Source: an uncultured Gammaproteobacteria bacterium (lineage in GTDB: Bacteria; Pseudomonadota; Gammaproteobacteria; Competibacterales; Competibacteraceae). Taken from it: a DNA stretch of 64,000 nt. Positions within the stretch are counted from its first letter, which is position 1. The number at the start of each line of letters is the position of its first letter. Below, piece after piece: positions 21,046 through 54,377 of this stretch. Location of the stretch: NCBI GenBank assembly GCA_963715845.1, contig CAVQSJ010000036.1:47710-111709 (forward strand), read 5' to 3'. Both the position numbers and the translations under genes were made by a program. The notes under the pieces are model-generated. The model saw only the letters and a program-made list of their open reading frames with translations. It searched no databases and was not told the DNA's origin.

Positions 21046-21658
21046 CGTCCGGTTTCCTTAAACTGCCGGCGTATCTGAAGCTGTGAACGCTGGCTCGGTC
21101 GGAAATCAGTCACTTGCCTGAATTGAAAAAATTTGATTCCCGACCAATATGCTTGGTTGCATTGCATCATGGTTTCTGCTATAGGAAAATAACATTAGGA
21201 TTGAAACATAAAAACCAAACCTGCCGCGAGACAGGGGCAGAAAGTCACGGGTCTCGAACACAGACAGCCGGACTGCCGAGGATGACCAGCGTGAAGGTCG
21301 TACGAGGTAGTGCGGCTTTTTTGTTGTTGGATGAAGAAGAGTCTTTTCGATGAGACTGGCTGGGGATACTGCGATTCGGCTTTAGATGAGACTCCTAAGT
21401 GTCGCTGGCCGTCACTCCATTTGCTCTTCCCGGCTAGCGTGCTGCATAACTAAACCGTCGGAGTGTTATGCGGAAACCATATAATTATTTGTTAGGGCGG
21501 GTGGATTTTTCTCTCCATCCCGACCAACTGTCTGGGGTGGTAAGAACCGGCGCGTGGGGTGCGATAAGAGCGCCCGGCCGGTAGCAACGTGAACCCGCTG
21601 TGCGCTGTTTCAAGGCAGGGCGGCAGTTCGGAAACAGTGGTTTCTTGAAACCGCGTCA

Positions 21659-43883: not shown

Positions 43884-44540
43884 ATGTTCACCGGCATCAT
43901 CACGGCAGTCGGCAGCATCACCGCGCTCCAGCCGCGCGGTGGCGACGTTCGCCTGCGCATCGCCACCGGCAAGCTGGATTTGAGCGACGTGCAACTGGGT
44001 GACAGCATCGCCGTCAGCGGCGTCTGCCTGACCGCCGTCGAACTGTCCGGCGACGGCTTCTGGGCCGACGCCTCGCGCGAGACCCTGGAACGCACCATCC
44101 TCGGTGAGGCTGCACCCGGCATGAGGGTCAACCTGGAAAAGGCCCTCACCCCGACCACCCGGCTCGGTGGCCATCTGGTCAGCGGCCACGTGGACGGCAT
44201 CGGCGCCGTCACTGAATGGCGCCCGGACGGCCGCTCCTGGCGGTTGCGGATTCAGGCGCCGGACGTGCTGGCCCGCTATATCGCCGAAAAGGGCTCGATT
44301 TGCGTGGACGGGGTCAGCCTGACCGTCAATCGGGTGGACGGCGCGGCCTTCGAACTCAACATCGTCCCGCACACGCTGGCGGAAACTACCTTCGTGGATT
44401 TTAAAATCGGCCGACGGGTCAATCTGGAAGTAGACCTGATCGCCCGCTATCTGGAGCGGTTGCTGCTGGGCGACCGAGCCGCGCAGCCCGGCGGCGGTCT
44501 GACCGAAGCCTTATTGCGCGAACACGGTTTCTGGAAATAG
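43884..44540 (+). CDS. ribE: riboflavin synthase (alpha subunit)
   Basis: MFTGIITAVG with duplicated lumazine-binding halves. Confidence 0.9.
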   Translation: MFTGIITAVGSITALQPRGGDVRLRIATGKLDLSDVQLGDSIAVSGVCLTAVELSGDGFWADASRETLERTILGEAAPGMRVNLEKALTPTTRLGGHLVSGHVDGIGAVTEWRPDGRSWRLRIQAPDVLARYIAEKGSICVDGVSLTVNRVDGAAFELNIVPHTLAETTFVDFKIGRRVNLEVDLIARYLERLLLGDRAAQPGGGLTEALLREHGFWK

Positions 44541-44542
44541 TC

Positions 44543-45646
44543 ATGGCACTGAACAGCATCGACGAAATCCTCGCCGACCTCCGGCAAGGCAAGATGGTCA
44601 TCATCATGGACGACGAGGATCGGGAAAACGAGGGCGACCTACTGATGGCCGCCTCGCTGGTTCGTCCCGAGGACATCAATTTCATGGCCCGTTACGGGCG
44701 TGGCCTGATCTGCCTGACCCTGACCCGCGAACGCTGCCAGCAATTGCGCCTGCCGCTGATGGTGCAGGACAACGCCACGCCCTACTCCACCAACTTCACC
44801 GTTTCCATCGAAGCCGCCCAGGGCGTCACCACCGGCATTTCCGCCTACGACCGCGCCCACACCGTCCGCACCGCCGTGCGGCCCGACGCCCGGCCTGAGG
44901 ATCTGGTGCAGCCTGGCCACATCTTCCCGCTGATGGCTCAGCCCGGCGGCGTGCTGACCCGCGCCGGCCACACCGAGGCCGGTTGCGACCTGACCCGGCT
45001 GGCTGGCCTGGAACCGGCGGCGGTCATCGTCGAAATTCTTAACGAGGACGGCGGCATGGCGCGCCGGGCCGACCTGGAAGCGTTCGCCGAACAGCATGAC
45101 CTGAAAATCGGCACCATCGCCGCGCTTATCCGCTACCGGATGCAGAACGAAAAGACCGTCGAACGGGTGGCCGATATCCAGATGACCACCGAATTCGGCC
45201 CGTTCCGGGTGCTGACCTATCAGGACGTGGTCAGCCGGCAAGTACATTTCGCCCTGGTCAAGGGCGACATCCATTCCAGCGAACCGGTTTTGGTGCGGGT
45301 CCACGTCCAGCATCTGCTGAGCGATCTGCTCACCCTCCGGCTCCCCGACAGCGGCTGGCCGCTCCGCGACGTCCTGCAACGGGTGGCGCGCGAACCAGCC
45401 GGCGTGCTGGTGTTTCTGAGCCACCCCGAAGAGCCGGCCGCATTGATCCGGCGGATGCGCGGCTACCAGTTTGGCTCCAGCGAAACGCCGCGCGCCGCCG
45501 ACCAAAGCGCCGAATTGCGCACTTACGGTATCGGCGCCCAAATCCTGCTCGACATCGGCGTGCGGCGGATGCGGGTGCTGAGCGCTCCCAAGCGCATCAC
45601 CGGGCTGTCCGGCTTCAATCTGGAAGTCGTGGAATACGTCTCCTGA
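44543..45646 (+). CDS. ribBA: 3,4-dihydroxy-2-butanone-4-phosphate synthase with a C-terminal GTP cyclohydrolase II-like domain
   Basis: The DHBP synthase motifs [11 protein letters not shown] and RAGHTEA are present. The C-terminal domain lacks obvious zinc-binding cysteines, so it may be an inactive RibA-like domain. Confidence 0.85.
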
Positions 45647-45680
45647 GTCCCATTCATCAGCCACCGTCACGGAATTCCCC

Positions 45681-46160
45681 ATGCATGACATCACCACCAT
45701 CGAAGGCGATTTCACGCCGCCGCAGGATGCCCGCTTCGCCCTGGTCGCGGCGCGGTTCAACAGCTTCATCGTACAGAGCTTGATCAACGGCGCGGTCGAT
45801 GCCCTGCGCCGGCACGGCGTTCCCGAGGCCAGCATCGATCTGATCTGGACGCCCGGGTCCTTCGAGCTGCCGCTGGCCGCGCAACGGCTGGCCGCCAGCG
45901 AACGCTACGATGGCATCGTCGCCCTCGGCGCGGTCATCCGCGGCGGCACCCCGCATTTCGAATACGTCGCCGGCGAGTGCGTCAAGGGGCTGGCGAACGT
46001 TTCGCTGCAATATAATATTCCGGTCGGTTTTGGCGTGCTGACGGTGGACACCATCGATCAGGCGGTCGAGCGAGCTGGCACCAAGGCCGGCAACAAGGGC
46101 GCCGAGGCGGCGATGTCGGTGCTGGAAATGGTCAGTCTGCTGCGCCGACTGGAAGGTTGA
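45681..46160 (+). CDS. ribH: 6,7-dimethyl-8-ribityllumazine synthase
   Basis: ARFNSFIV...[14 protein letters not shown] is diagnostic. Confidence 0.95.
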
Positions 46161-46163
46161 GTC

Positions 46164-46616
46164 GTGGGCAATCCCGTGCGCAAAAACCTGCCCGGAAAGC
46201 GCGGTTGGGCGCGGCGCTGCGCCGTGCAAGCGCTGTATCAGTGGCAGTTGACCGGCGAGGACCTGACCCTGATCGAAACGCGGTTCCTGGCCGACCAGGA
46301 TTTAGGCAAGGCCGATCCCGCTTACTTCCGGGAACTGGTCCAGCAAATTCCGGCCCGTGCGGAGGAAATCGACACCGTACTGACACCCTTCCTGGACCGG
46401 CCGATGCCGCAGGTGGATCCGGTGGAGCGCGCCATTCTGCGCATCGGCGGTTACGAACTGATGCAGCGCCCGGACATCGCCTACCGGGTCGTCATCAACG
46501 AGGCGGTGGAACTGGCCAAGGTGTTCGGTGCCGAGCAAGGGCATCGCTTCGTCAACGGCGTACTCGACAAAGTGGCCCGCGCGGTGCGACCGGTCGAGTT
46601 CGAGGCGCATTGCTGA
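46164..46616 (+). CDS. nusB: transcription antitermination factor NusB (GTG start)
   Basis: ARRCAVQALYQW...; the gene follows ribH, as in the canonical operon. Confidence 0.9.
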   Translation: MGNPVRKNLPGKRGWARRCAVQALYQWQLTGEDLTLIETRFLADQDLGKADPAYFRELVQQIPARAEEIDTVLTPFLDRPMPQVDPVERAILRIGGYELMQRPDIAYRVVINEAVELAKVFGAEQGHRFVNGVLDKVARAVRPVEFEAHC

Positions 46617-46655
46617 GCGGCCTACAATCGCGCCACTTCGCGAACTACACTCTGG

Positions 46656-47369
46656 ATGAACCCAACGGCGAGGCCGGACGCCATGATGTCACAACCCATC
46701 ACCATCACCCACGAAATCTTCCAGGTGGGCGGCTATGGTCTGACCGCCCCCGAAGACGCCGCCATCTATCTGCTCGACTTCGACGGCCACGCGGCGCTGG
46801 TGGACGCCGGCACCGGTCGTGCTCAGAAGCGCTTGCTCGACCATCTCGCCACCACCGGGGTACGTCCCGAGCAAATCGAGTATCTGCTGCTTACCCACTG
46901 CCATTATGACCACACGGGGGGTGCCCGTGGCCTGCGCGAGAAGCTGGGCTGTCCGGTAGTCGCCCACGAACTGGATGCCGATTTTCTGGAACGCGGCGAC
47001 AACGAGGTCACGGCGGCCAGTTGGTATGGCACCAAACTCTATCCCTGCCCAGTGGACCGCCGACTGAGCGGTGCGCGGCAAACGCTGACCTTGGGCGAAC
47101 GCTCGATCACCGCCCTGCACATCCCCGGCCACTCCCCCGGCTCGCTGGCCTACCTAACCGAATCCGAGGGTCAAACCGTGCTGTTCGCCCAGGACGTACA
47201 TGGGCCACTGGACCTTCGGCTGCGCTCGAACCGGACCGATTACCGGGCTTCGCTGGAACGGATGCTGGCACTGGAGGCCGATATTCTCTGCGAGGGACAC
47301 TACGGTATCTTCCGGGGCAAGCCGGTGGTGGCCGAATTCATTCGCTCGTTCCTGGACGAAGCGTACTAA
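46656..47369 (+). CDS. MBL-fold metallo-hydrolase
   Basis: THCHYDHTGG (HxHxDH) and the later His/Asp ligands; an alternative start lies at 46683. Confidence 0.75.
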   Translation: MNPTARPDAMMSQPITITHEIFQVGGYGLTAPEDAAIYLLDFDGHAALVDAGTGRAQKRLLDHLATTGVRPEQIEYLLLTHCHYDHTGGARGLREKLGCPVVAHELDADFLERGDNEVTAASWYGTKLYPCPVDRRLSGARQTLTLGERSITALHIPGHSPGSLAYLTESEGQTVLFAQDVHGPLDLRLRSNRTDYRASLERMLALEADILCEGHYGIFRGKPVVAEFIRSFLDEAY

Positions 47370-47478
47370 CGGGAACCTCCTGCCCCAACCGGCCGGCAGC
47401 GAAAACGAATCATGGCAGGGCTGGTGGCCTTTGCCAGGCTAACAGGCACCACTCGCCCGCTTCTCTCCGGAGGACATC

Positions 47479-47967
47479 ATGGATTACGCCATTCGCACCA
47501 TGTTGTGCGCCACCGACCTCGGCCCGCGCGGCCCGGACGTTTTGCGGCACGCCGCCGGTCTGGCGCACCACTTCGGTGCCCGGTTGCACATCATTCATGC
47601 CATTGAACCGCTAAGCGATTTCGCCCAGTTCTGGATCAACACCACCGTTCCCGAGGCGACGCGTCAGACCCATCGCAGCGAGATTTTCGCCAGCGTCCAT
47701 CAGGCTCTGCAGCAGCGGCTGGATGCGTATTGCCGGGAGGTGTTGGAAAGCCACGCCGAGGGTCTGATCGCCGATATCCAGATCATCGAGGGACCGCCCG
47801 TGCGGATCATTCTGGAAGAGGCCCGGCGAACAAGCGCGGAAATGATCGTGCTCGGCTCGCACGGGCATTCCGCCATCGGCGAGGCGATGCTGGGGTCGGT
47901 GGCGCACAAGGTCACCATGAAAGCCACCGTCCCGGTGTTGCTGGTACCGATCGGACATCGGGGATAG
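47479..47967 (+). CDS. universal stress protein (UspA family)
   Basis: Typical Usp fold motifs at both ends (C-terminus VLGSHGHSAIGEAMLGSVAHKV). Confidence 0.8.
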   Translation: MDYAIRTMLCATDLGPRGPDVLRHAAGLAHHFGARLHIIHAIEPLSDFAQFWINTTVPEATRQTHRSEIFASVHQALQQRLDAYCREVLESHAEGLIADIQIIEGPPVRIILEEARRTSAEMIVLGSHGHSAIGEAMLGSVAHKVTMKATVPVLLVPIGHRG

Positions 47968-48002
47968 CAAGCCGACAAGTCGTACTCATTGCCCGCTTGG
48001 CC

Positions 48003-48392
48003 TTACATCGGCGCCTCGAACAATTCCAGCGCCCGTTTCAGCGCCGCGCGAGTCGTGTCGTTATTATCCGGTGCCGCCAGTGTCTGCCGCATGAATTCCA
48101 CGGTCTTGGGCGGATTCTGGGAAAAGCGGTAAGCAACGGCGAACGCCCCGGTTGCCTTCTCGCCATCGTTCATCGCCCCGTACACCTGGCCGAGGTTGAA
48201 CCAGGACGATGACCGCCCCGGCGATAGCGAGATCGCATACACCAGTTGATGCTCCGCGCGCTTGAACTGGCCGAGCTTCAAATTGGCGTAACCGAGATTG
48301 CCGGCCACCTCGACATCGGCCGGATCGGCGATCTGGGCCTGCTGGAAAGCGGTCGCTGCGACCTGATAGTTAGTGTCTGGCCGAAAATCCAC
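48003..48392 (-). CDS. TPR-repeat protein, possibly an N-terminally truncated remnant (GTG start 4 nt after the intron's 3' end)
   Basis: Two to three TPR-like repeats (AGNLGYANLKLGQFKRAEHQL..., SSWFNLGQVYGAMNDGEKA...). There is no RBS, because the upstream sequence is the intron. Confidence 0.45.
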   Translation of the reverse strand: MDFRPDTNYQVAATAFQQAQIADPADVEVAGNLGYANLKLGQFKRAEHQLVYAISLSPGRSSSWFNLGQVYGAMNDGEKATGAFAVAYRFSQNPPKTVEFMRQTLAAPDNNDTTRAALKRALELFEAPM

Positions 48393-48396
48393 GATG

Positions 48397-49084
48397 ATCG
48401 GGTCGGGCTGACGGGATTGCGCCCGTCAGCCCTCCCACACCACCGGACATGCGGTTTTCCGCATCCGGCGGTTGAGCCCAGCGGGCTTAGCCCGCGAGCA
48501 CCCACGGTAGAGTGAATTACTGATGTCTACCGTGTTGCTCATTGAACCTCTTCTGACGTCTGTGCTCGCTGTCCGCCGCGACTCGATGGGCACGTGCCGC
48601 CCCTCCGCAGGAATCCACCTGCTCGGCTTGGCCCGCCGGTCCGGGAGCTGCCGCAGTTGCCGCTCCGAACCCGTGTCGCCCGTCTCCGTGCCGCTGGGAA
48701 CGGATGCAGACTGTGGTCCTCTCGTGACTCTTCGGCCCTTCGCTCGACCGGCCTTTCGGCCGGTGTCCACACTACTACGGCCTCTGCTGACTCCTGGCAC
48801 GCTCTCACGCGTCAGGTCTCCCCGAGTAAGAACAGATACTTTCGACCCGTGCCGCCAGGCTCTACCGGATACGTCTTTCGGTGACGGTTGGATTTCGCGT
48901 TCCCTAGCACGCTCATCGCCCGTACCCGGCCTCACTGCCTGTTCGTGTTCCTGCGGTCGTGTCTTGGCTACGCCCTTCTTTCAGCTTGGCCTCGCGGCTT
49001 CCACCTTGGGTTTCGCTACGCTTCTCGTCACTCTTCGCGGTTACCTCCTCTCAGGTAACAAGTACATGCCCATGTCGGGCACAC
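48397..49084 (-). mobile_element. ORF-less bacterial group IIC intron ribozyme (domains I-VI; ~688 nt)
   Basis: On the minus strand the 5' end GUGUGCCCGACAUGGGCAUG matches the group II GUGYG + CCCxGAxAxGGG start. Internal blocks (CUUACUCGGGGAGACCUG...AGUCAGCAGAGGCCGUAGUA; GGAACACGAAC) resemble IIC introns such as the O. iheyensis intron. There are many GNRA-closed helices. Domain V is ACCGCCGGAUGCGG-AAAA-CCGCAUGUCCGGUGGU, with a 2-nt bulge and a CGC triad, and is followed by GGUGUG. Domain VI is a hairpin followed by ...GACCCGAU. No RT ORF is present on either strand. Confidence 0.55.
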
Positions 49085-49086
49085 TA

Positions 49087-49112
49087 GGTTGGGGTGACGA
49101 AGGAACCCCAAC
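49087..49112 (-). terminator. terminator-like hairpin (gttggggttccttcgtcaccccaac on the minus strand) located 2 nt upstream of the intron's 5' end
   Basis: Perfect 7-bp G/C-rich stem; a second similar hairpin lies at 49137-49162. IIC introns characteristically insert just after such hairpins. Confidence 0.4.
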
Positions 49113-49785
49113 ATTAAATTCCATCGCCAGCAATCAGTTGGGGTTCGCAAGCTCACCCCAACCTACAAAATTTGCGACCTGTACGATTAGAAAAAAAATC
49201 AGCATAATCAAAGACTATAGTCTTACCGCCAGAGGTAGCCAGCATGCGCAATATCATAGTCAGCATCAACGTGGGGTTTAGGGAAATAGAAAATCTTGCC
49301 ACGGAAAGCGATGGCGTTGAAAGAATGGATGACGGGTCATTTAGAATGGTTCTTGACCATCAAGCCGAATTCAATATCGACCGCTTGGAAAACGCGCTGC
49401 TGCAAACCAGCTACCCGGCGTTACGGAAGGCCTTGTCCGACCATTCTCGAACGGGCCTCTAAAAAAAAGCCTGCGAAATGATCAGCCTCGCTGGGAGCGG
49501 CCGCGTTGAAGAACATCCCAATCTTTACCAGGTGGATGGGGAGGTCGGGCGGTTCACCTTCAAGACCTACGACGTAGAAGGCGAAGATGGAAAGCCTCGA
49601 TTTGAGGGCATCGAGCTGTTTCCCCCATGCCACGGACGGCAGTGGTACCAGACCCATGGATTCAAAGAGATCGCGTTGTTGTGTGGGGCCGCGCAACGCA
49701 GTTACCGACAAACCACCAGCCCTTTTAACGTGGTTATAAATCAATGACTTAGTTAAAGTCACTGACCTTAACTTCAGGAGGTCGC

Positions 49786-51144
49786 TCAATCCTTCCTCGC
49801 AAGGAGTCTCGCAGTAGATACATGAGGTTTTCCAACAAATTGGTTCTTAGGTTTCGCCGGTTGCTTGGGACCTCGCTTGCTCTTTTTAAATCTCCACAGT
49901 TCTATTTTTAATGCGAAATCAATCAATAGCTGACTAACTTCTTGAGTACTTCCATCCCTGAAAACCGTCCATTCCTGATCCTCAACAATCAGGACCATGC
50001 CGGTATAAGTCGCTGAGATTTCTTCGGCAATGTAATAGTCCGAAATCTCATCATTAATGGCTTCATCGGGGTAAGCAGCACGCAACGCCGCCATCACCAC
50101 TGCATAAACATTAAAGGCCACCAGCGCCAAGCAAAACCCAAATAAAGCCGCTTTTGGATAACCGAGAGTATTGATCTCCGAATGGAAATATTTTTCTAAT
50201 TTTTGGAAAGCAGTTTCAATTCCCCAGCGGTGTCTGTAAAGCTCAGCCACTTGCAGTCCATCGACAACTTCTGGGAGAAGGTTCGTGAAGATCGCGATGG
50301 TCTTTTCTCCATCTCGGGTCGGGTTTTTTAGGTAAACAATCAGGCGCCGCGCCTCATAGGTTTGCCCCCCAGACGAACTCAGTTCGACCGGTTGTTCAAA
50401 CACCCTCCCGGTTGCACTGTTACCCACAAATTTCTCTTCAGACAATGGCTTATACGGCATATTCTGATGATGGCGAATCACGAAATACGCCCCTTTATCG
50501 TGGATCCCCCAGAGGAAATCCTGCACACAAAAATTGCGGTCAGCGATCCAAATTTCTTTCGGTTGAACCGTTTCTAAGACTTGATCCAATAATGCCCTCT
50601 CTTGCGTATAAGCATCCTCACACGGAAAAACATTGATCGCTAGCTCAACCTCAGGATCAAAAACCACTAACGATTTTCCCGGCAAAGCTCCCGCTTTCGT
50701 GCCGCGAAGAACCTGAAGACGGTGTTCCGTCTTTTCTATACAATTCCCATCTAATAATCTGACTTTGTAGCCCGGAACCCACGGCGGATTGGTTCCGTTC
50801 ATCTCGCGGATAATGCTCTCGGCTTCACCAGCAATATAGCGCACAATTCCCGCCGAGGTTTGGGTTTCAACCCCTTTCAACTTATTATAAACCGCAACCA
50901 CCGAATTACTAATGAAATCCGAATGCCGATAGGCTGCATGGACACTGTTCCGGATGCGACACACCACATGCAGCATCAAATAAACTAAGGAGGAAAACAG
51001 AATATGTCGGGTATATTGTACTTGGCAGTTGGTATTAAACCACTCATCTATTTTCTCCTTGGCTAACAGACGCTCTAATAAACCATGCACCATAACCGTG
51101 ACAGGACTCTTCTCCGAAAACTTCTGCAAAATAACTCCAAGCAT
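49786..51144 (-). CDS. DDE transposase, IS4-like superfamily (the IS spans ~49.75-51.25 kb, AT-rich)
   Basis: 452-aa ORF with ...YRHRWGIETAFQKLEKYF (the YREK-type C-terminal motif of IS4-family Tnp); a sharp GC drop across the element. Confidence 0.85.
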   Translation of the reverse strand: MLGVILQKFSEKSPVTVMVHGLLERLLAKEKIDEWFNTNCQVQYTRHILFSSLVYLMLHVVCRIRNSVHAAYRHSDFISNSVVAVYNKLKGVETQTSAGIVRYIAGEAESIIREMNGTNPPWVPGYKVRLLDGNCIEKTEHRLQVLRGTKAGALPGKSLVVFDPEVELAINVFPCEDAYTQERALLDQVLETVQPKEIWIADRNFCVQDFLWGIHDKGAYFVIRHHQNMPYKPLSEEKFVGNSATGRVFEQPVELSSSGGQTYEARRLIVYLKNPTRDGEKTIAIFTNLLPEVVDGLQVAELYRHRWGIETAFQKLEKYFHSEINTLGYPKAALFGFCLALVAFNVYAVVMAALRAAYPDEAINDEISDYYIAEEISATYTGMVLIVEDQEWTVFRDGSTQEVSQLLIDFALKIELWRFKKSKRGPKQPAKPKNQFVGKPHVSTARLLARKD

Positions 51145-51296
51145 GGCCCACTCTCTCGCTTTATGTTAAAAACTATATTTTACAATATGTTAGAATCACA
51201 TTAAAAGAGCTGCGACAAACCACCCAAGGGTTCAACCGCAGCCGCCATCAAGAATCTGGTGGCACACCTCTGAACACGTTACGCGATGGCGCACAG

Positions 51297-52367
51297 GTGG
51301 AAGGGCTGAAGGTCATTGATTTTCTGACCAGAAAAAGCCAAAGCATACTCAAGGAACACGGATTTGATCCGCGCGGGGTGCCGGGGTCGGAATGCGCGGC
51401 CCTCCAGCAGATCAAGGAACCGGCCAATGTTGAAGCAAAGGCGCTGCAACCGGCGCTGGCCGCCGTTTGCAAGGACATGGGTAAAAAAGGCTTTTCCGCG
51501 GCGGACATCGAACAAGCGCGGGAAACCCTCGGCGCCAAGAAACCCTATGAACTAGCCGTGCGCTGCGTCTACATCCACCTCGACGACGTGGGGGTCAAGG
51601 AACAAAAACCGCACCGGAATAAACCGGGTGCGGCCCAAGAACCTGTTGCAGATCAAAAGGATACGGCAAAGGGTAACCGCCCGACGGTCCAAAACACGGT
51701 CGCGCACATTCAAAATGCCAACAAAAGCTTTACCTTGACGGGCCGAAGCGTCGCCGAGGTTTTACGGTTCGTCTTGGGGTTCTTGCTGAACAACGCCTTG
51801 CTGGGCCTGAATCTCAAGGTCTGCATCGATGGTCAGCGTAGCCTTCAAGATGCGATCCTCCGCTTTTTTTCATGGCACCCCCATTTGACCTTGTTGCTGG
51901 ACTGGTTCCATGTGGTCAAGAAATTCAAGGAGGACTTGAGTCTGGCGTGTAAGGGGCGGGAAATCCGCAACCGCCATCTCAAGAACCTACTGACGCTGCT
52001 GTGGTTTGGTTTGATCGACAAGGCCCAGGCGTATTTGGTGGCCATGACCGCAACGGACATCAAAGACGACCAGGCCATCGCCCGGCTCATTGCTTACTTG
52101 GAACGCAACCGCCAATGGATTCCGTGCTACGCCATGCGGAGCAAGCTGGGGTTGCCGAATTCCAGCAATCCAGTGGAACGGTGCAATAACTGGGTGACCG
52201 CCAGGCGTCAAAAACACCACGGGATGAGTGGGTCTGAAAAGGGGTCGTATGCATTGACCTCATTAGCGGCGGTCACCCTCAACAACGCAACGCGGCAATG
52301 GATAGAAAACCGCACTATCCCTTTTACGTGGGTGGTTAAAGCGGCTAAAGCGGTTAAAGCGGCTTAG
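51297..52367 (+). CDS. DDE transposase, tentatively ISKra4-like, apparently lacking its N-terminal region
   Basis: Candidate DDE residues are YIHLDDVG, CIDGQRSLQ and NPVERCNNWV. At 356 aa it is short for the family, and it starts just after the IS4-like element, which suggests disruption. The family call is from memory and is uncertain. Confidence 0.5.
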   Translation: MEGLKVIDFLTRKSQSILKEHGFDPRGVPGSECAALQQIKEPANVEAKALQPALAAVCKDMGKKGFSAADIEQARETLGAKKPYELAVRCVYIHLDDVGVKEQKPHRNKPGAAQEPVADQKDTAKGNRPTVQNTVAHIQNANKSFTLTGRSVAEVLRFVLGFLLNNALLGLNLKVCIDGQRSLQDAILRFFSWHPHLTLLLDWFHVVKKFKEDLSLACKGREIRNRHLKNLLTLLWFGLIDKAQAYLVAMTATDIKDDQAIARLIAYLERNRQWIPCYAMRSKLGLPNSSNPVERCNNWVTARRQKHHGMSGSEKGSYALTSLAAVTLNNATRQWIENRTIPFTWVVKAAKAVKAA

Positions 52368-52410
52368 GTTAATCGTACAGGTCGAAAATTTGGGGGTTTT
52401 CGTTCAGACA

Positions 52411-52668
52411 CTAGTTATTCTGCTTCAGCGCAGCCAACCCCTGCTGATTGAGGGCGCGGGCTTCCTTCACGTTCTGGTGGGCCGGCCTGGAGACGCCCTC
52501 CAACTGTTGCCGGGTCGCGTTCAAACCCGTCTCATCGTTGTTGACCGATTGGCCCAGCATCCGCTGGACCTGGCCAAACACGGTGTCGTACTGGCCGGCC
52601 TGAACCGGCGCAGCCAGATTCAACGATGCAATCAGTATCAGTATTTTCAGTGTCTTGCTCATTGCCAC
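52411..52668 (-). CDS. small secreted hypothetical protein
   Basis: Signal-peptide-like MAMSKTLKILILIASLNLAAPVQA; 85 aa. Confidence 0.35.
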   Translation of the reverse strand: MAMSKTLKILILIASLNLAAPVQAGQYDTVFGQVQRMLGQSVNNDETGLNATRQQLEGVSRPAHQNVKEARALNQQGLAALKQNN

Positions 52669-52684
52669 GCCCTCCCGCTGTGCT

Positions 52685-53425
52685 CTATTTCCGCCGTTGC
52701 AGGAATCGCGTCACTTCCAGCGCGAACGACTCCGCGCGCCAGGTGTTGGTCGCGGTGACATGGGTCGCGCAGGGCATGACCCAGAGCCCACAGTTGGGAA
52801 TCGCTCCGAACATCTCCAGAATCTGATCCAGCGGCGCCACCGGGTCCCGGTCGCCGACCACGAGCAACGTCGGCTGGGTGATGCGATCCAGAATTTCCAG
52901 ATCGTGCGCATGGTCGGTGGTGGCCGGTTCCAACGCCTCCGACACCCGGCCGATCACCGCCTCCCAGGCGTCCGGCCCGCCCTGCGGCCGGTGGACATCG
53001 CTCAGCCACTTGTGCATGCCGACGCCGCGCCAGTAGGCCGGATCGGCCATGTCGCGGGTGCCGGCGCGGGTCTCCTCGTCCTTGCGGTAACCGACCCGGT
53101 ACAGCACCAGCTTGCTCACCCGCTCGGGATGATGGATGGTGAGCCACAGCGCCACCGCGCCGCCCATCGACGATCCCACCAAACCCGCCTGGGGTAGACC
53201 CAGTTCGTCCAGCAATTCCAGCACGGCGCAGCCCATATCGCCGACGGTCAGTTTCTCGGCCACCATCGGGCTGCGGCCATGCCCCAGATGGTCTGGCACA
53301 ATCACCCGGAAATTTCGCGCGAACAACGGGATTTGCGGCTTCCACTCCGCGCCGCTCATGCCGCCGCTGTGCAACAGGAACAGCGGATCGCCCTGGCCGC
53401 TTTCGGTGTAATGCAAGGTGGCCAT
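52685..53425 (-). CDS. alpha/beta-hydrolase-fold protein
   Basis: HG oxyanion motif (FLLHSGG) and nucleophile elbow GSSMGG; the start was chosen at MATLHYTE. Confidence 0.75.
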   Translation of the reverse strand: MATLHYTESGQGDPLFLLHSGGMSGAEWKPQIPLFARNFRVIVPDHLGHGRSPMVAEKLTVGDMGCAVLELLDELGLPQAGLVGSSMGGAVALWLTIHHPERVSKLVLYRVGYRKDEETRAGTRDMADPAYWRGVGMHKWLSDVHRPQGGPDAWEAVIGRVSEALEPATTDHAHDLEILDRITQPTLLVVGDRDPVAPLDQILEMFGAIPNCGLWVMPCATHVTATNTWRAESFALEVTRFLQRRK

Positions 53426-53525
53426 ACCGGCATCCTCTTTCGATGGTGAATGGCGGCTTATTATAGCCACCCCGCTGCGCTTGCCCGATAATGCGGCGAC
53501 AATCACCACAAGAGAGAACTGGTCC

Positions 53526-54377
53526 ATGGCGATGACATCCCACACCTACCGCGCGCTCGGTCCCCACGGCTTCCACCGGGTTCACTACACCGAATGGGGC
53601 GAACCCGACAATCCCAAGGTGCTGATCTGCGTCCACGGCCTGACCCGCACCGCGCGCGACTTCGACTTCCTGGCCGCCGCGCTGGAACATGAGTACCGGG
53701 TAATCTGCCCGGACGTGGTCGGGCGCGGCAAGAGCGACTGGCTGGACGACAAGACCGACTACACCTACCCGCTCTACGTCAACGACTTGGCCATGCTGCT
53801 GGCGCGGATCGACGCCAAGCGGATCGACTGGGTCGGCACCTCGATGGGCGGCTTGATCGGCATTTTTCTAGCCAGCTATCCGGGTACGCCGATTCACAAA
53901 CTGGTGGTCAACGACGTCGGGCCGCGCATTCCCGCCGCTGGTCTGAAACGGGTCGCCGACTACGTCGGACAGGTGGTCGCCTATGACAGTTTCGAAGCCT
54001 TGGATCGCGCTCTGCGCGTCTACGCCGCCACATTCGGCAAGCTGACGGAGGAGCAGTGGCGACACATGCTCATCCACAGCTCCCGGCAATTGGAAGACGG
54101 GCGCTATACGACGGGCTATGACCCTGGCATTGCCGACAACTTCAAGAATATGGAACTGAAGGACATCGACCTATGGCCGGTCTGGGACAGCATCCGCTGC
54201 CCAACCCTGGTGCTGCGCGGGGTGTATTCCGACGTGCTGGATCACCCCGACGCCGTCGCCATGACCGAGCGTGGTCCCAAGGCCAAATTGATCGAATTCC
54301 CTGGCATGGGTCACGCCCCGGCGCTGATGGCCGACGATCAAATTGCGGTGGTACGCGACTGGTTGCTGGCGGATTGA
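53526..54377 (+). CDS. alpha/beta-hydrolase-fold protein
   Basis: VHGLTRTARDF and GTSMGG nucleophile elbow; encoded divergently from the previous hydrolase. Confidence 0.75.
   Translation: MAMTSHTYRALGPHGFHRVHYTEWGEPDNPKVLICVHGLTRTARDFDFLAAALEHEYRVICPDVVGRGKSDWLDDKTDYTYPLYVNDLAMLLARIDAKRIDWVGTSMGGLIGIFLASYPGTPIHKLVVNDVGPRIPAAGLKRVADYVGQVVAYDSFEALDRALRVYAATFGKLTEEQWRHMLIHSSRQLEDGRYTTGYDPGIADNFKNMELKDIDLWPVWDSIRCPTLVLRGVYSDVLDHPDAVAMTERGPKAKLIEFPGMGHAPALMADDQIAVVRDWLLAD

Follow-up and report, generated by a model that had tools for sequence, protein, structure and literature searches.

The minus strand of a 64,000-nt stretch of DNA from an uncultured gammaproteobacterium of the family Competibacteraceae (contig CAVQSJ010000036.1, positions 47,710 to 111,709; hereafter the window) carries, from 49084 to 48397, a 688-nt group II intron that starts with GUGUGCCCGACAUGGGCAUG at 49084, ends in ...CCCGAU and is devoid of a reverse transcriptase (RT) gene. 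As judged from its sequence, the element is a genuine and structurally intact six-domain group II ribozyme for which splicing activity is predicted. We consider it highly probable that it is a non-autonomous group IIC intron, deleted for its open reading frame (ORF), that is mobilised in trans. A preliminary description of the stretch had proposed an ORF-less IIC intron inserted after a DNA hairpin; the sequence features that it listed are all present where it had placed them, and the proposal is borne out by the Rfam matches and class features described below.

Relatives of the intron were collected by scanning one genome per species with its 5' 22-mer, which yielded 49 loci, most of them in Chromatiaceae (Thiodictyon, Lamprocystis, Thiocapsa, and Thiohalocapsa) and Achromatium, with some in Competibacteraceae and Oxalobacteraceae. 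The ends of the 688-nt intron coincide with those of full-length relatives of 1885-1911 nt and agree with the boundary consensus of 5' GUGYG and 3' AY (GUGUG at 49084-49080 and an AU-type end at 48397). Two Rfam covariance models matched above their curated thresholds: RF02001 (group-II-D1D4-3; gathering score 32) aligned over its full model length (1-170) to 49001-48831 with 95.2 bits and an E value of 5e-18, and RF00029 (Intron_gpII, domains 5 and 6; gathering score 40) aligned to 48473-48397 with 44.5 bits. The intron and its domains (D1-D6) are as follows.

48397-49084, minus strand: ORF-less group IIC intron, 5' GUGUG ... CCCGAU 3', with ends from Rfam and the full-length relatives.
48821-49079, minus strand: D1, intron positions 6-264, from a constrained RNAalifold fold and covariation; RF02001 spans 49001-48831.
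48789-48820, minus strand: D2, from the fold; helix 14 with 3 compensatory pairs.
48783-48788, minus strand: J2/3 linker AGCAGA, from the fold; invariant across the intron family.
48734-48782, minus strand: D3, from the fold and covariation; helices 15-17.
48473-48733, minus strand: D4 minus its ORF, from the fold and the alignment to relatives.
48544-48719, minus strand: long structured D4a arm (~175 nt), intron positions 366-541; helices 18-26 with 18 compensatory pairs.
48439-48472, minus strand: D5, with the CGC triad at 48470-48468, a UG bulge at 48449-48448, and an AAAA loop; from RF00029 and the fold.
48399-48437, minus strand: D6, with A48403, 7 nt before the 3' end, as the bulged branch point; from RF00029 and the fold.

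The consensus fold and its covariation were derived from 13 family members covering positions 1-545, and 139 pairs were scored. In this alignment 97.6% of the paired cells could pair, compared to 32-41% when the 3' partners were slid; two-sided (compensatory) changes were found at 31 pairs versus 4-11 in the slid controls, and none of 500 shuffles reached the observed values. Only 3 of 185 consensus pairs are broken in the window copy, and 2 of these 3 are also broken in a full-length copy. D1 is closed by a helix between CCCGA (49079-49075) and UCGGG (48825-48821), and its two basal helices were set by homology, without a cost in energy. The unconstrained RNAalifold layout, in which the 5' end paired locally and D2 was mis-nested, was replaced by the canonical layout at equal energy. 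D5 reads ACCGCCGGAUGCGG-AAAA-CCGCA-UG-UCCGGUGGU, with the G of the triad paired to U; it is identical in all 12 copies aligned through this domain and is thus uninformative for covariation, while D6 carries 2 compensatory pairs. The preliminary description was correct that CGC stands in place of AGC, but this is a recognised variant of the catalytic triad (PMC4424553) and not an anomaly. With 351 nt in D1-D3 and ~76 nt in D5-D6 plus the ends, the ribozyme is compact (~400-430 nt without D4). The D4a arm is the presumed docking platform for the intron-encoded protein, by analogy to the Eubacterium rectale IIC holoenzyme, in which D4a anchors the protein and helps to form the cleft for the DNA stem (PMC10190682); such anchoring explains why D4a would be kept. 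A 252-aa ORF runs antisense to the intron (48523-49281, plus strand), and similar long antisense ORFs lie over two other copies (L007 and L037). This ORF is an artefact that results from the purine-rich composition of the ribozyme strand and could be miscalled as a gene.

The RT gene that the window copy lacks is present in several relatives, and its remains within D4 are recognisable. The full-length relatives that encode an RT are L002, L022, and L045 (1885-1911 nt), L171 (1889 nt), and L047, which is cut by a contig end. Two of these (L047 and L171) align with the window copy in two blocks, positions 1-566 (96% identity) and 568-688 (99%), which in these relatives are separated by a 1202-nt segment encoding the RT. 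On the basis of this alignment, the window intron is a deletion derivative, having lost ~1.2 kb, of a 1889-nt intron that encodes a 418-aa class-C RT. A tblastn search with the cognate RT recovered only residues 1-8 (48542-48519) and 410-418 (48516-48490), in agreement with the earlier statement that D4 holds no RT/maturase ORF.

48519-48542, minus strand: remnant of the RT ORF start, ATG and codons 2-8 (MSNTVDIS), 8 of 8 residues matched by tblastn; preceded by the Shine-Dalgarno sequence GAAGAGG.
48487-48516, minus strand: remnant of the RT ORF end, the last 9 codons (FTLPWVLAG) and TAA, 9 of 9 residues matched by tblastn; out of frame with the ATG.

Two nucleotides separate the remnants. 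Since CACGGTAGA (48534-48526) pairs with TCTACCGTG (48511-48503), the D4 stem around the former ORF survives as a hairpin. A deletion by way of the 7-nt direct repeats TGGATTC of the parent was considered and rejected, as it does not yield the observed junction.

The window copy is not the only one to have lost its ORF. Among the classifiable copies, 5-7 have an RT, 8 are ORF-less and 660-690 nt long (the window copy included), and several are shorter, down to 142 nt. Other ORF-less copies have other junctions (L003/L008/L049, L026, and L029), giving at least four independent deletion junctions in the family, in each of which the ATG region has been kept along with D4a and the D4 stem. The members of one such lineage (L003/L008/L049) are 97-99.6% identical and occupy three sites in two genomes, so that divergence within a single ORF-less lineage reaches up to 3%. 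The shorter derivatives (L019 at 686-825, L042, L021, L036, and L017) fall at ~142 nt, ~375 nt, and ~460-500 nt, and in the shortest (~142 nt) the first ~60 nt are fused directly to D5-D6.

The assignment of the element to class IIC is indicated by four features of the sequences: the CGC triad, the pairing of exon-binding site 1 (EBS1) with intron-binding site 1 (IBS1), the insertion just past a hairpin, and the similarity of the cognate RT. The RT of the full-length relatives (~418-425 aa) contains no domains besides RVT_1 and GIIM, and its match to TIGR04416 scores 356 bits. Its best matches in the PDB are the GsI-IIC RT (366 bits) and the E. rectale IIC RT (279 bits), along with the IIC RT fragments 5HHJ/5HHL, whereas LtrA (5g2x) and the group II RT of 6me0 scored 114 and 86 bits, respectively. 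The 418-aa protein thus has no endonuclease domain, as is characteristic of class C; this feature belongs to the full-length relatives, the ORF being absent from the window copy. The exon-binding sites are assigned as follows.

48903-48906, minus strand: putative EBS1, 5'-UAGG, in the loop GCUAGGGA of hairpin 48912-48897; complementary to IBS1 CCUA.
48862, minus strand: candidate EBS3 (G223), in the unpaired AG of GGUAGAGCC, which aligns to an unpaired AA in the RF02001 consensus GUAAA.

IBS1 (CCUA) comprises the last four bases of the 5' exon (49088-49085), and IBS3 is the C at 48396; both are as short as is typical of IIC introns (3-4 nt and 1 nt, respectively). The placement of EBS1 is suggested by its position, following the terminal-loop EBS1 in D1d of IIC introns (PMC10190682); the UAGG of this loop is invariant in 13 family members. 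An alternative EBS1 in the internal loop GGUAGAG was dropped in favour of the terminal loop GCUAGGGA, which pairs over 4 bp and fits the IIC structures. G223 is likewise a positional candidate for EBS3 and fits the 3' exons that begin with C, which account for 13 of the 14 known. The insertion sites of the family end in CTA in 39 of 50 cases, and at 34 of 50 a perfect stem of at least 6 bp ends no more than 5 nt from the site. For the window copy the stem ends at 49088 and is followed by CTA|C, such that the intron is inserted 3 nt past the DNA hairpin.

This hairpin, found at 49088-49112, had been taken for terminator-like in the preliminary description. Its presence is not in doubt, but no U-tract follows the stem (the sequence continues CUA|CAUCGUGG) and a terminator scan made no call. 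It is instead the right arm of a doublet of repetitive extragenic palindromic (REP) sequences, with the intron lying in the CTA|C tag.

49085-49167, minus strand: GTAG-tagged REP doublet, the intron target; TGTAG-GTTGGGGTGAGCTTGCGAACCCCAAC, a 24-nt spacer, then GTTGGGGTTCCTTCGTCACCCCAAC-CTA.

The last bases of the doublet, C and A, are 48396-48395, beyond the intron. Its arms are GTAG-GTTGGGGTGAG..CGAACCCCAAC and, after the 24-nt spacer, GTTGGGGTTC..TCACCCCAAC-CTAC. Removal of the intron gives the exon junction ...CCAACCUA|CAUCGUGG; the uninterrupted doublet has the form TGTAG...CCAACCTACATCGT, and its unsplit right arm would read ...CACCCCAACCTACATCGT. There are two occurrences of the hairpin stem GTTGGGGT/ACCCCAAC, at 49088-49112 and 49137-49162, versus none in 100 shuffles, and the intron-removed doublet (89 nt) folds into one long DNA hairpin (-24.8 kcal/mol, z -6.9). 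An uninterrupted right arm (...CACCCCAACCTAC) is present in two of the collected loci (L036 and L084). A scan of metagenomes with the left-end 16-mer gave 120 stretches, in which 86 matches have the REP hairpin, and the 39 matches with enough flank are complete doublets ending in ..CCAACCTAC. By comparison to published definitions of the GTAG-tagged REP superfamily and of REPIN-like doublets (PMC3733652, PMC3337134), the tags and arms place the target doublet in this superfamily, in its REPIN-like form. Such REPs are characterised by many copies per host genome and by an accompanying RAYT transposase; the 64-kb window contains one doublet. The 96%-identical full-length relatives of the intron sit in metagenome contigs whose REP type matches that of Competibacteraceae contigs in metagenome-assembled genomes (MAGs).

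Sites of the TAGG...CCTA (REP-doublet) type make up ~10 of 50 family sites, which makes REPs a recurrent but not exclusive target; with this proportion, a family specialised on REP doublets is weakly supported and was not retained. Group II introns inside REPs were noted earlier in Pseudomonas putida, for 2 of 9 copies (PMC1525189). In a Lamprocystis contig (L036, 900-1110) complete REP-doublet units form a tandem array with a 109-nt period and a right arm identical to that in the window. Some REP doublets (L066, L074, L081, and L109) lie inside longer elements with inverted arms TAGAAYCTRTCTCAAAAT; these are missing around most of the doublets examined.

Evidence for mobility comes from copies at other sites. 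The window copy and two further copies (L007 and L037) are identical at 688 of 688 positions and have the same deletion junction at three different sites. The two further copies are separate loci of one public MAG, with unrelated flanks that diverge exactly at the intron ends, and no DNA outside the intron is shared between the window and the fetched loci. We infer that the window element could be mobilised in trans by the protein of a relative, in the following manner. After transcription of the intron, an RT produced elsewhere in the genome by a full-length relative would bind the RNA by way of D4a and assist its splicing. The resulting ribonucleoprotein would reverse-splice into single-stranded DNA that presents a stem-loop followed by CCTA|C, and the RT would then copy the inserted RNA into DNA. 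At the present locus the intron would have no role in host gene expression and would be one layer of a 4039-bp nested block in a gene for a tetratricopeptide repeat (TPR) protein.

Several observations weigh against an intact intron mobilised in trans. The closest full-length copies are only 96% identical to the window copy in D1-D4a. No further RT sequence was found by tblastn with the cognate RT anywhere in the 64-kb window, the scan detected no full-length copy in the MAG from which the two identical copies come, and a scan of the metagenome collection for the 26-nt sequence across the exact deletion junction gave no match. Within the ribozyme of the window copy, mismatches occur in D2 (A.C) and in helix I(ii) (U.C), and the terminal loop of D5 (48458-48455) is AAAA instead of the usual GNRA, yet this loop is invariant in ORF-containing and ORF-less copies alike. 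A sigma-70-like promoter was not found within 47900-49900. Finally, the two sites occupied in the MAG (L007 at ~3195 and L037 at ~7818) end in CCTA|C and CCTG|C without a significant upstream hairpin (z ~0); such hairpin-less sites are atypical for IIC targeting and may reflect ectopic retrotransposition.

The surroundings of the intron bear on how it reached this locus. As noted in the preliminary description, insertion sequence (IS) elements flank it, and these are nested, together with the intron and the REP doublet, in a larger block here called element X.

48373-48390: left terminal inverted repeat of element X, 18 bp, GTGTCTGGCCGAAAATCC, compared to GTGTCTGAACGAAAACCC at the right end.
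52394-52411: right terminal inverted repeat of element X, 18 bp.
48367-48372: 6-bp target-site duplication TAACTA (minus strand); the second copy is at 52412-52417.
49168-52391, plus strand: ISKra4-like IS with 22-bp terminal repeats, inside element X.
49718-51212, minus strand: IS4-family IS inside the ISKra4-like transposase gene; boundaries from the comparison to an intact relative (L050) and a 12-bp duplication, CGACAAACCACC.
48003-48366, minus strand: 3' fragment of the TPR gene, codon Y84 to the stop.
52418-52662, minus strand: 5' fragment of the TPR gene, signal peptide and first ~82 codons.

Element X is a block of 4039 bp (48373-52411) bounded by repeats of the form GTGTCTG(AA/GC)CGAAAA(C/T)CC. 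A JGI contig (L172) provides the empty site: it matches 46069-48372 with 99.4% and 52412-53013 with 97.7% identity, and it has an unbroken TPR gene with a single TAACTA, demonstrating that 48373-52411 is an insertion with a 6-bp duplication. The joined TPR fragments match intact 204-aa proteins of Competibacter/Contendobacter-like bacteria over their full length with 94-96% identity; the junction reads ..KQNNYQV.. in these homologues, placing the split at codon 83/84. A 3-bp duplication (CAG) at the TPR gene was also considered, but the resulting reconstruction was 4 residues short; alignment to the homologues gave TAACTA, with which the empty site agreed. We conclude that the TPR gene in the window is a pseudogene, its two parts separated by 4 kb of nested mobile DNA, and that the intron has no bearing on TPR expression and may have reached the locus as cargo of the block.

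In its strongest form, this last idea has the intron residing in the REP doublet of X before the 4-kb block moved into the TPR gene, with no retrohoming at this place. We regard such passenger transport as possible but somewhat doubtful. It accords with the 18-bp inverted repeats and 6-bp duplication that bound the block and with the absence of the whole block from the 99.4%-identical relative, from which it follows that the nested layers are very recent or arrived together; moreover, the target is the sole REP doublet in the 64-kb window, and the host genome may not be rich in such targets. Countering this, the mobility of a 4-kb element X would be hypothetical, no second copy of its terminal repeats turned up within the window or among the first 50 loci fetched, and stepwise insertions into a tolerated, already-dead locus are equally possible.

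Much less probable is that the element is a dead relic, a fossil that neither moves nor splices, having lost its RT gene in situ once inserted. The window does lack an RT gene, the intron lies in what may be called a graveyard of mobile elements, and many of its relatives are truncated fragments of 142-500 nt. Against this stand the 688/688 identity and the shared junction at three unrelated sites whose flanks differ immediately at the intron ends, a pattern that deletion in situ cannot produce, and the catalytic elements, all intact, with D4a kept. Of the two possibilities that the preliminary description had left side by side, a trans-mobilised ribozyme consequently fits better, given the 3 broken pairs in 185 and the three identical copies, than a degenerate intron.

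A coupling of the intron to the TPR gene, in which splicing or read-through would be needed for a TPR ORF with no ribosome-binding site of its own, was suggested by a GTG-start ORF on the strand of the intron, 4 nt beyond its 3' end, but is refuted, in that the first 25 nt of this ORF are inserted block, the intact homologues are 204 aa long with a signal peptide, their N-terminal 83 codons lie 4 kb upstream (52662-52412), and the empty-site contig shows an unbroken gene. The TPR gene start that had been described 4 nt downstream of the intron is accordingly an artefact: the GTG at 48392 overlaps a 6-nt spacer and the 18-bp terminal inverted repeat, the 25 nt consist of spacer/repeat, the remaining repeat, and the 6-bp duplication, and the true gene is the 204-aa one split by the 4039-bp insertion. 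With the GTG lying in a terminal repeat of the inserted block and not at a gene start, the apparent want of room for a ribosome-binding site ceases to be a puzzle. The pyrimidine-rich antisense ORF and the TPR gene start, both artefacts, carry a lesson for annotation.

The favoured reading, an ORF-deleted IIC intron mobilised in trans, can be compared to several known systems. Like the IIC introns O.i.I1, B.h.I1, GsI-IIC, and that of E. rectale, the element has a compact ribozyme with a CGC triad, a 4-bp EBS1-IBS1 and a single-base EBS3-IBS3 pairing, insertion a few nt past a stem-loop, and a cognate RT that lacks an endonuclease domain and is closest to the GsI-IIC RT. It differs from them in the absence of an RT gene from the window copy, in a target that is a REP doublet and neither an intrinsic terminator nor an attC site, in the AAAA loop of D5 throughout the family, and in the ~175-nt D4a arm. 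As in the IIC-attC introns of integrons, the target is structured single-stranded DNA that is not a terminator and is part of another mobile-DNA system; here, however, a GTAG/CTAC-tagged REP palindrome takes the place of attC, and there is no integron.

The closest parallel is provided by the ORF-less TeI3 introns of Thermosynechococcus elongatus, which retain N- and C-terminal ORF remnants and were mobilised in trans experimentally (PMC2882425). Both cases involve an internal deletion in D4, remnants of the ORF ends, identical copies at several sites, and related introns with an ORF, from which the protein could come in trans. The introns of T. elongatus belong to a class other than IIC, and a single deletion event occurred there as opposed to at least four independent junctions here; they also share a genome with their helpers, whereas a helper was seen neither in the window nor in the MAG with the two identical copies (L007 and L037). 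Trans mobilisation was established by experiment in T. elongatus and is inferred here. The situation also resembles that of miniature inverted-repeat transposable elements (MITEs), in which the enzyme gene is removed internally, the recognised parts are kept, spread depends on the enzyme of autonomous relatives, and origin is recurrent. Unlike in MITEs, the retained part is a whole ribozyme that performs the chemistry of DNA integration itself, and the intermediate is RNA.

ORF-less bacterial introns are described in reviews as comparatively rare and usually accompanied by a related ORF-containing intron (PMC4424553, PMC3245105), and the element fits this known category. The pattern in the family, namely repeated ORF loss, D4a retention, spread of mini-introns, and use of the REP tag, goes somewhat beyond published descriptions. 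On the draft genomes in which the pattern was seen, we tentatively propose that loss of the RT gene is recurrent in this IIC family of Chromatiaceae and Competibacteraceae (at least four junctions among ~28 classifiable copies), that the resulting mini-introns keep D4a, persist, spread between sites and genomes, and are about as common as autonomous copies, and that the CTAC tag of REPs is perhaps used as IBS1/IBS3 beside the hairpin, a general picture that we regard as slightly less likely than not. If it were true, one mobile element would be parasitising the repeats of another, with the CTAC tag serving as a ready-made IBS1/IBS3. The independent deletion lineages serve as natural replicates for which parts must be kept. 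Of broader relevance is the old question of how introns could lose their own protein and rely instead on a common apparatus for splicing and mobility that acts in trans, one stage of a proposed route to spliceosomal introns. The window copy and its relatives offer a IIC example in the form of a 688-nt RNA, a defined 418-aa class-C RT as putative helper, and a target composed of a hairpin and CCTA|C.

Further details of the nested block and its neighbourhood are as follows. An intact ISKra4-like relative (L050), 91-92% identical, ends at the same 22-bp repeats as the window copy, from which it follows that the outer 18-bp repeats are those of a separate element that encloses the IS; the two inverted-repeat pairs are thereby ruled out as one ~49-bp IS end split by the intron. 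NCBIfam NF033572 matched the ISKra4-like IS with 59 bits, below the cutoff. Its reading frame is also broken near 49460, and neither the window copy nor the intact relative shows an obvious target duplication. The IS4-family IS was matched by NF033592 (119 bits, cutoff 115) and by Pfam DDE_Tnp_1; a look-up of a 98%-identical transposase fragment (P0179) gave no contig. Minus its IS and intron cargo, element X would be a ~127-bp MITE-like element around the REP doublet, and the inverted arms found around some other REP doublets have a layout like its own. Downstream of the TPR gene (43884-47967) are riboflavin genes, nusB, and genes for a metallo-beta-lactamase-fold protein and a universal stress protein, in an order conserved in the empty-site contig, and upstream (52685-54377) are two alpha/beta-hydrolase-like ORFs. 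Unrelated to the intron, a cyclic di-GMP-I riboswitch aptamer is located at 21204-21280 on the plus strand (RF01051, 49.5 bits, gathering score 35).

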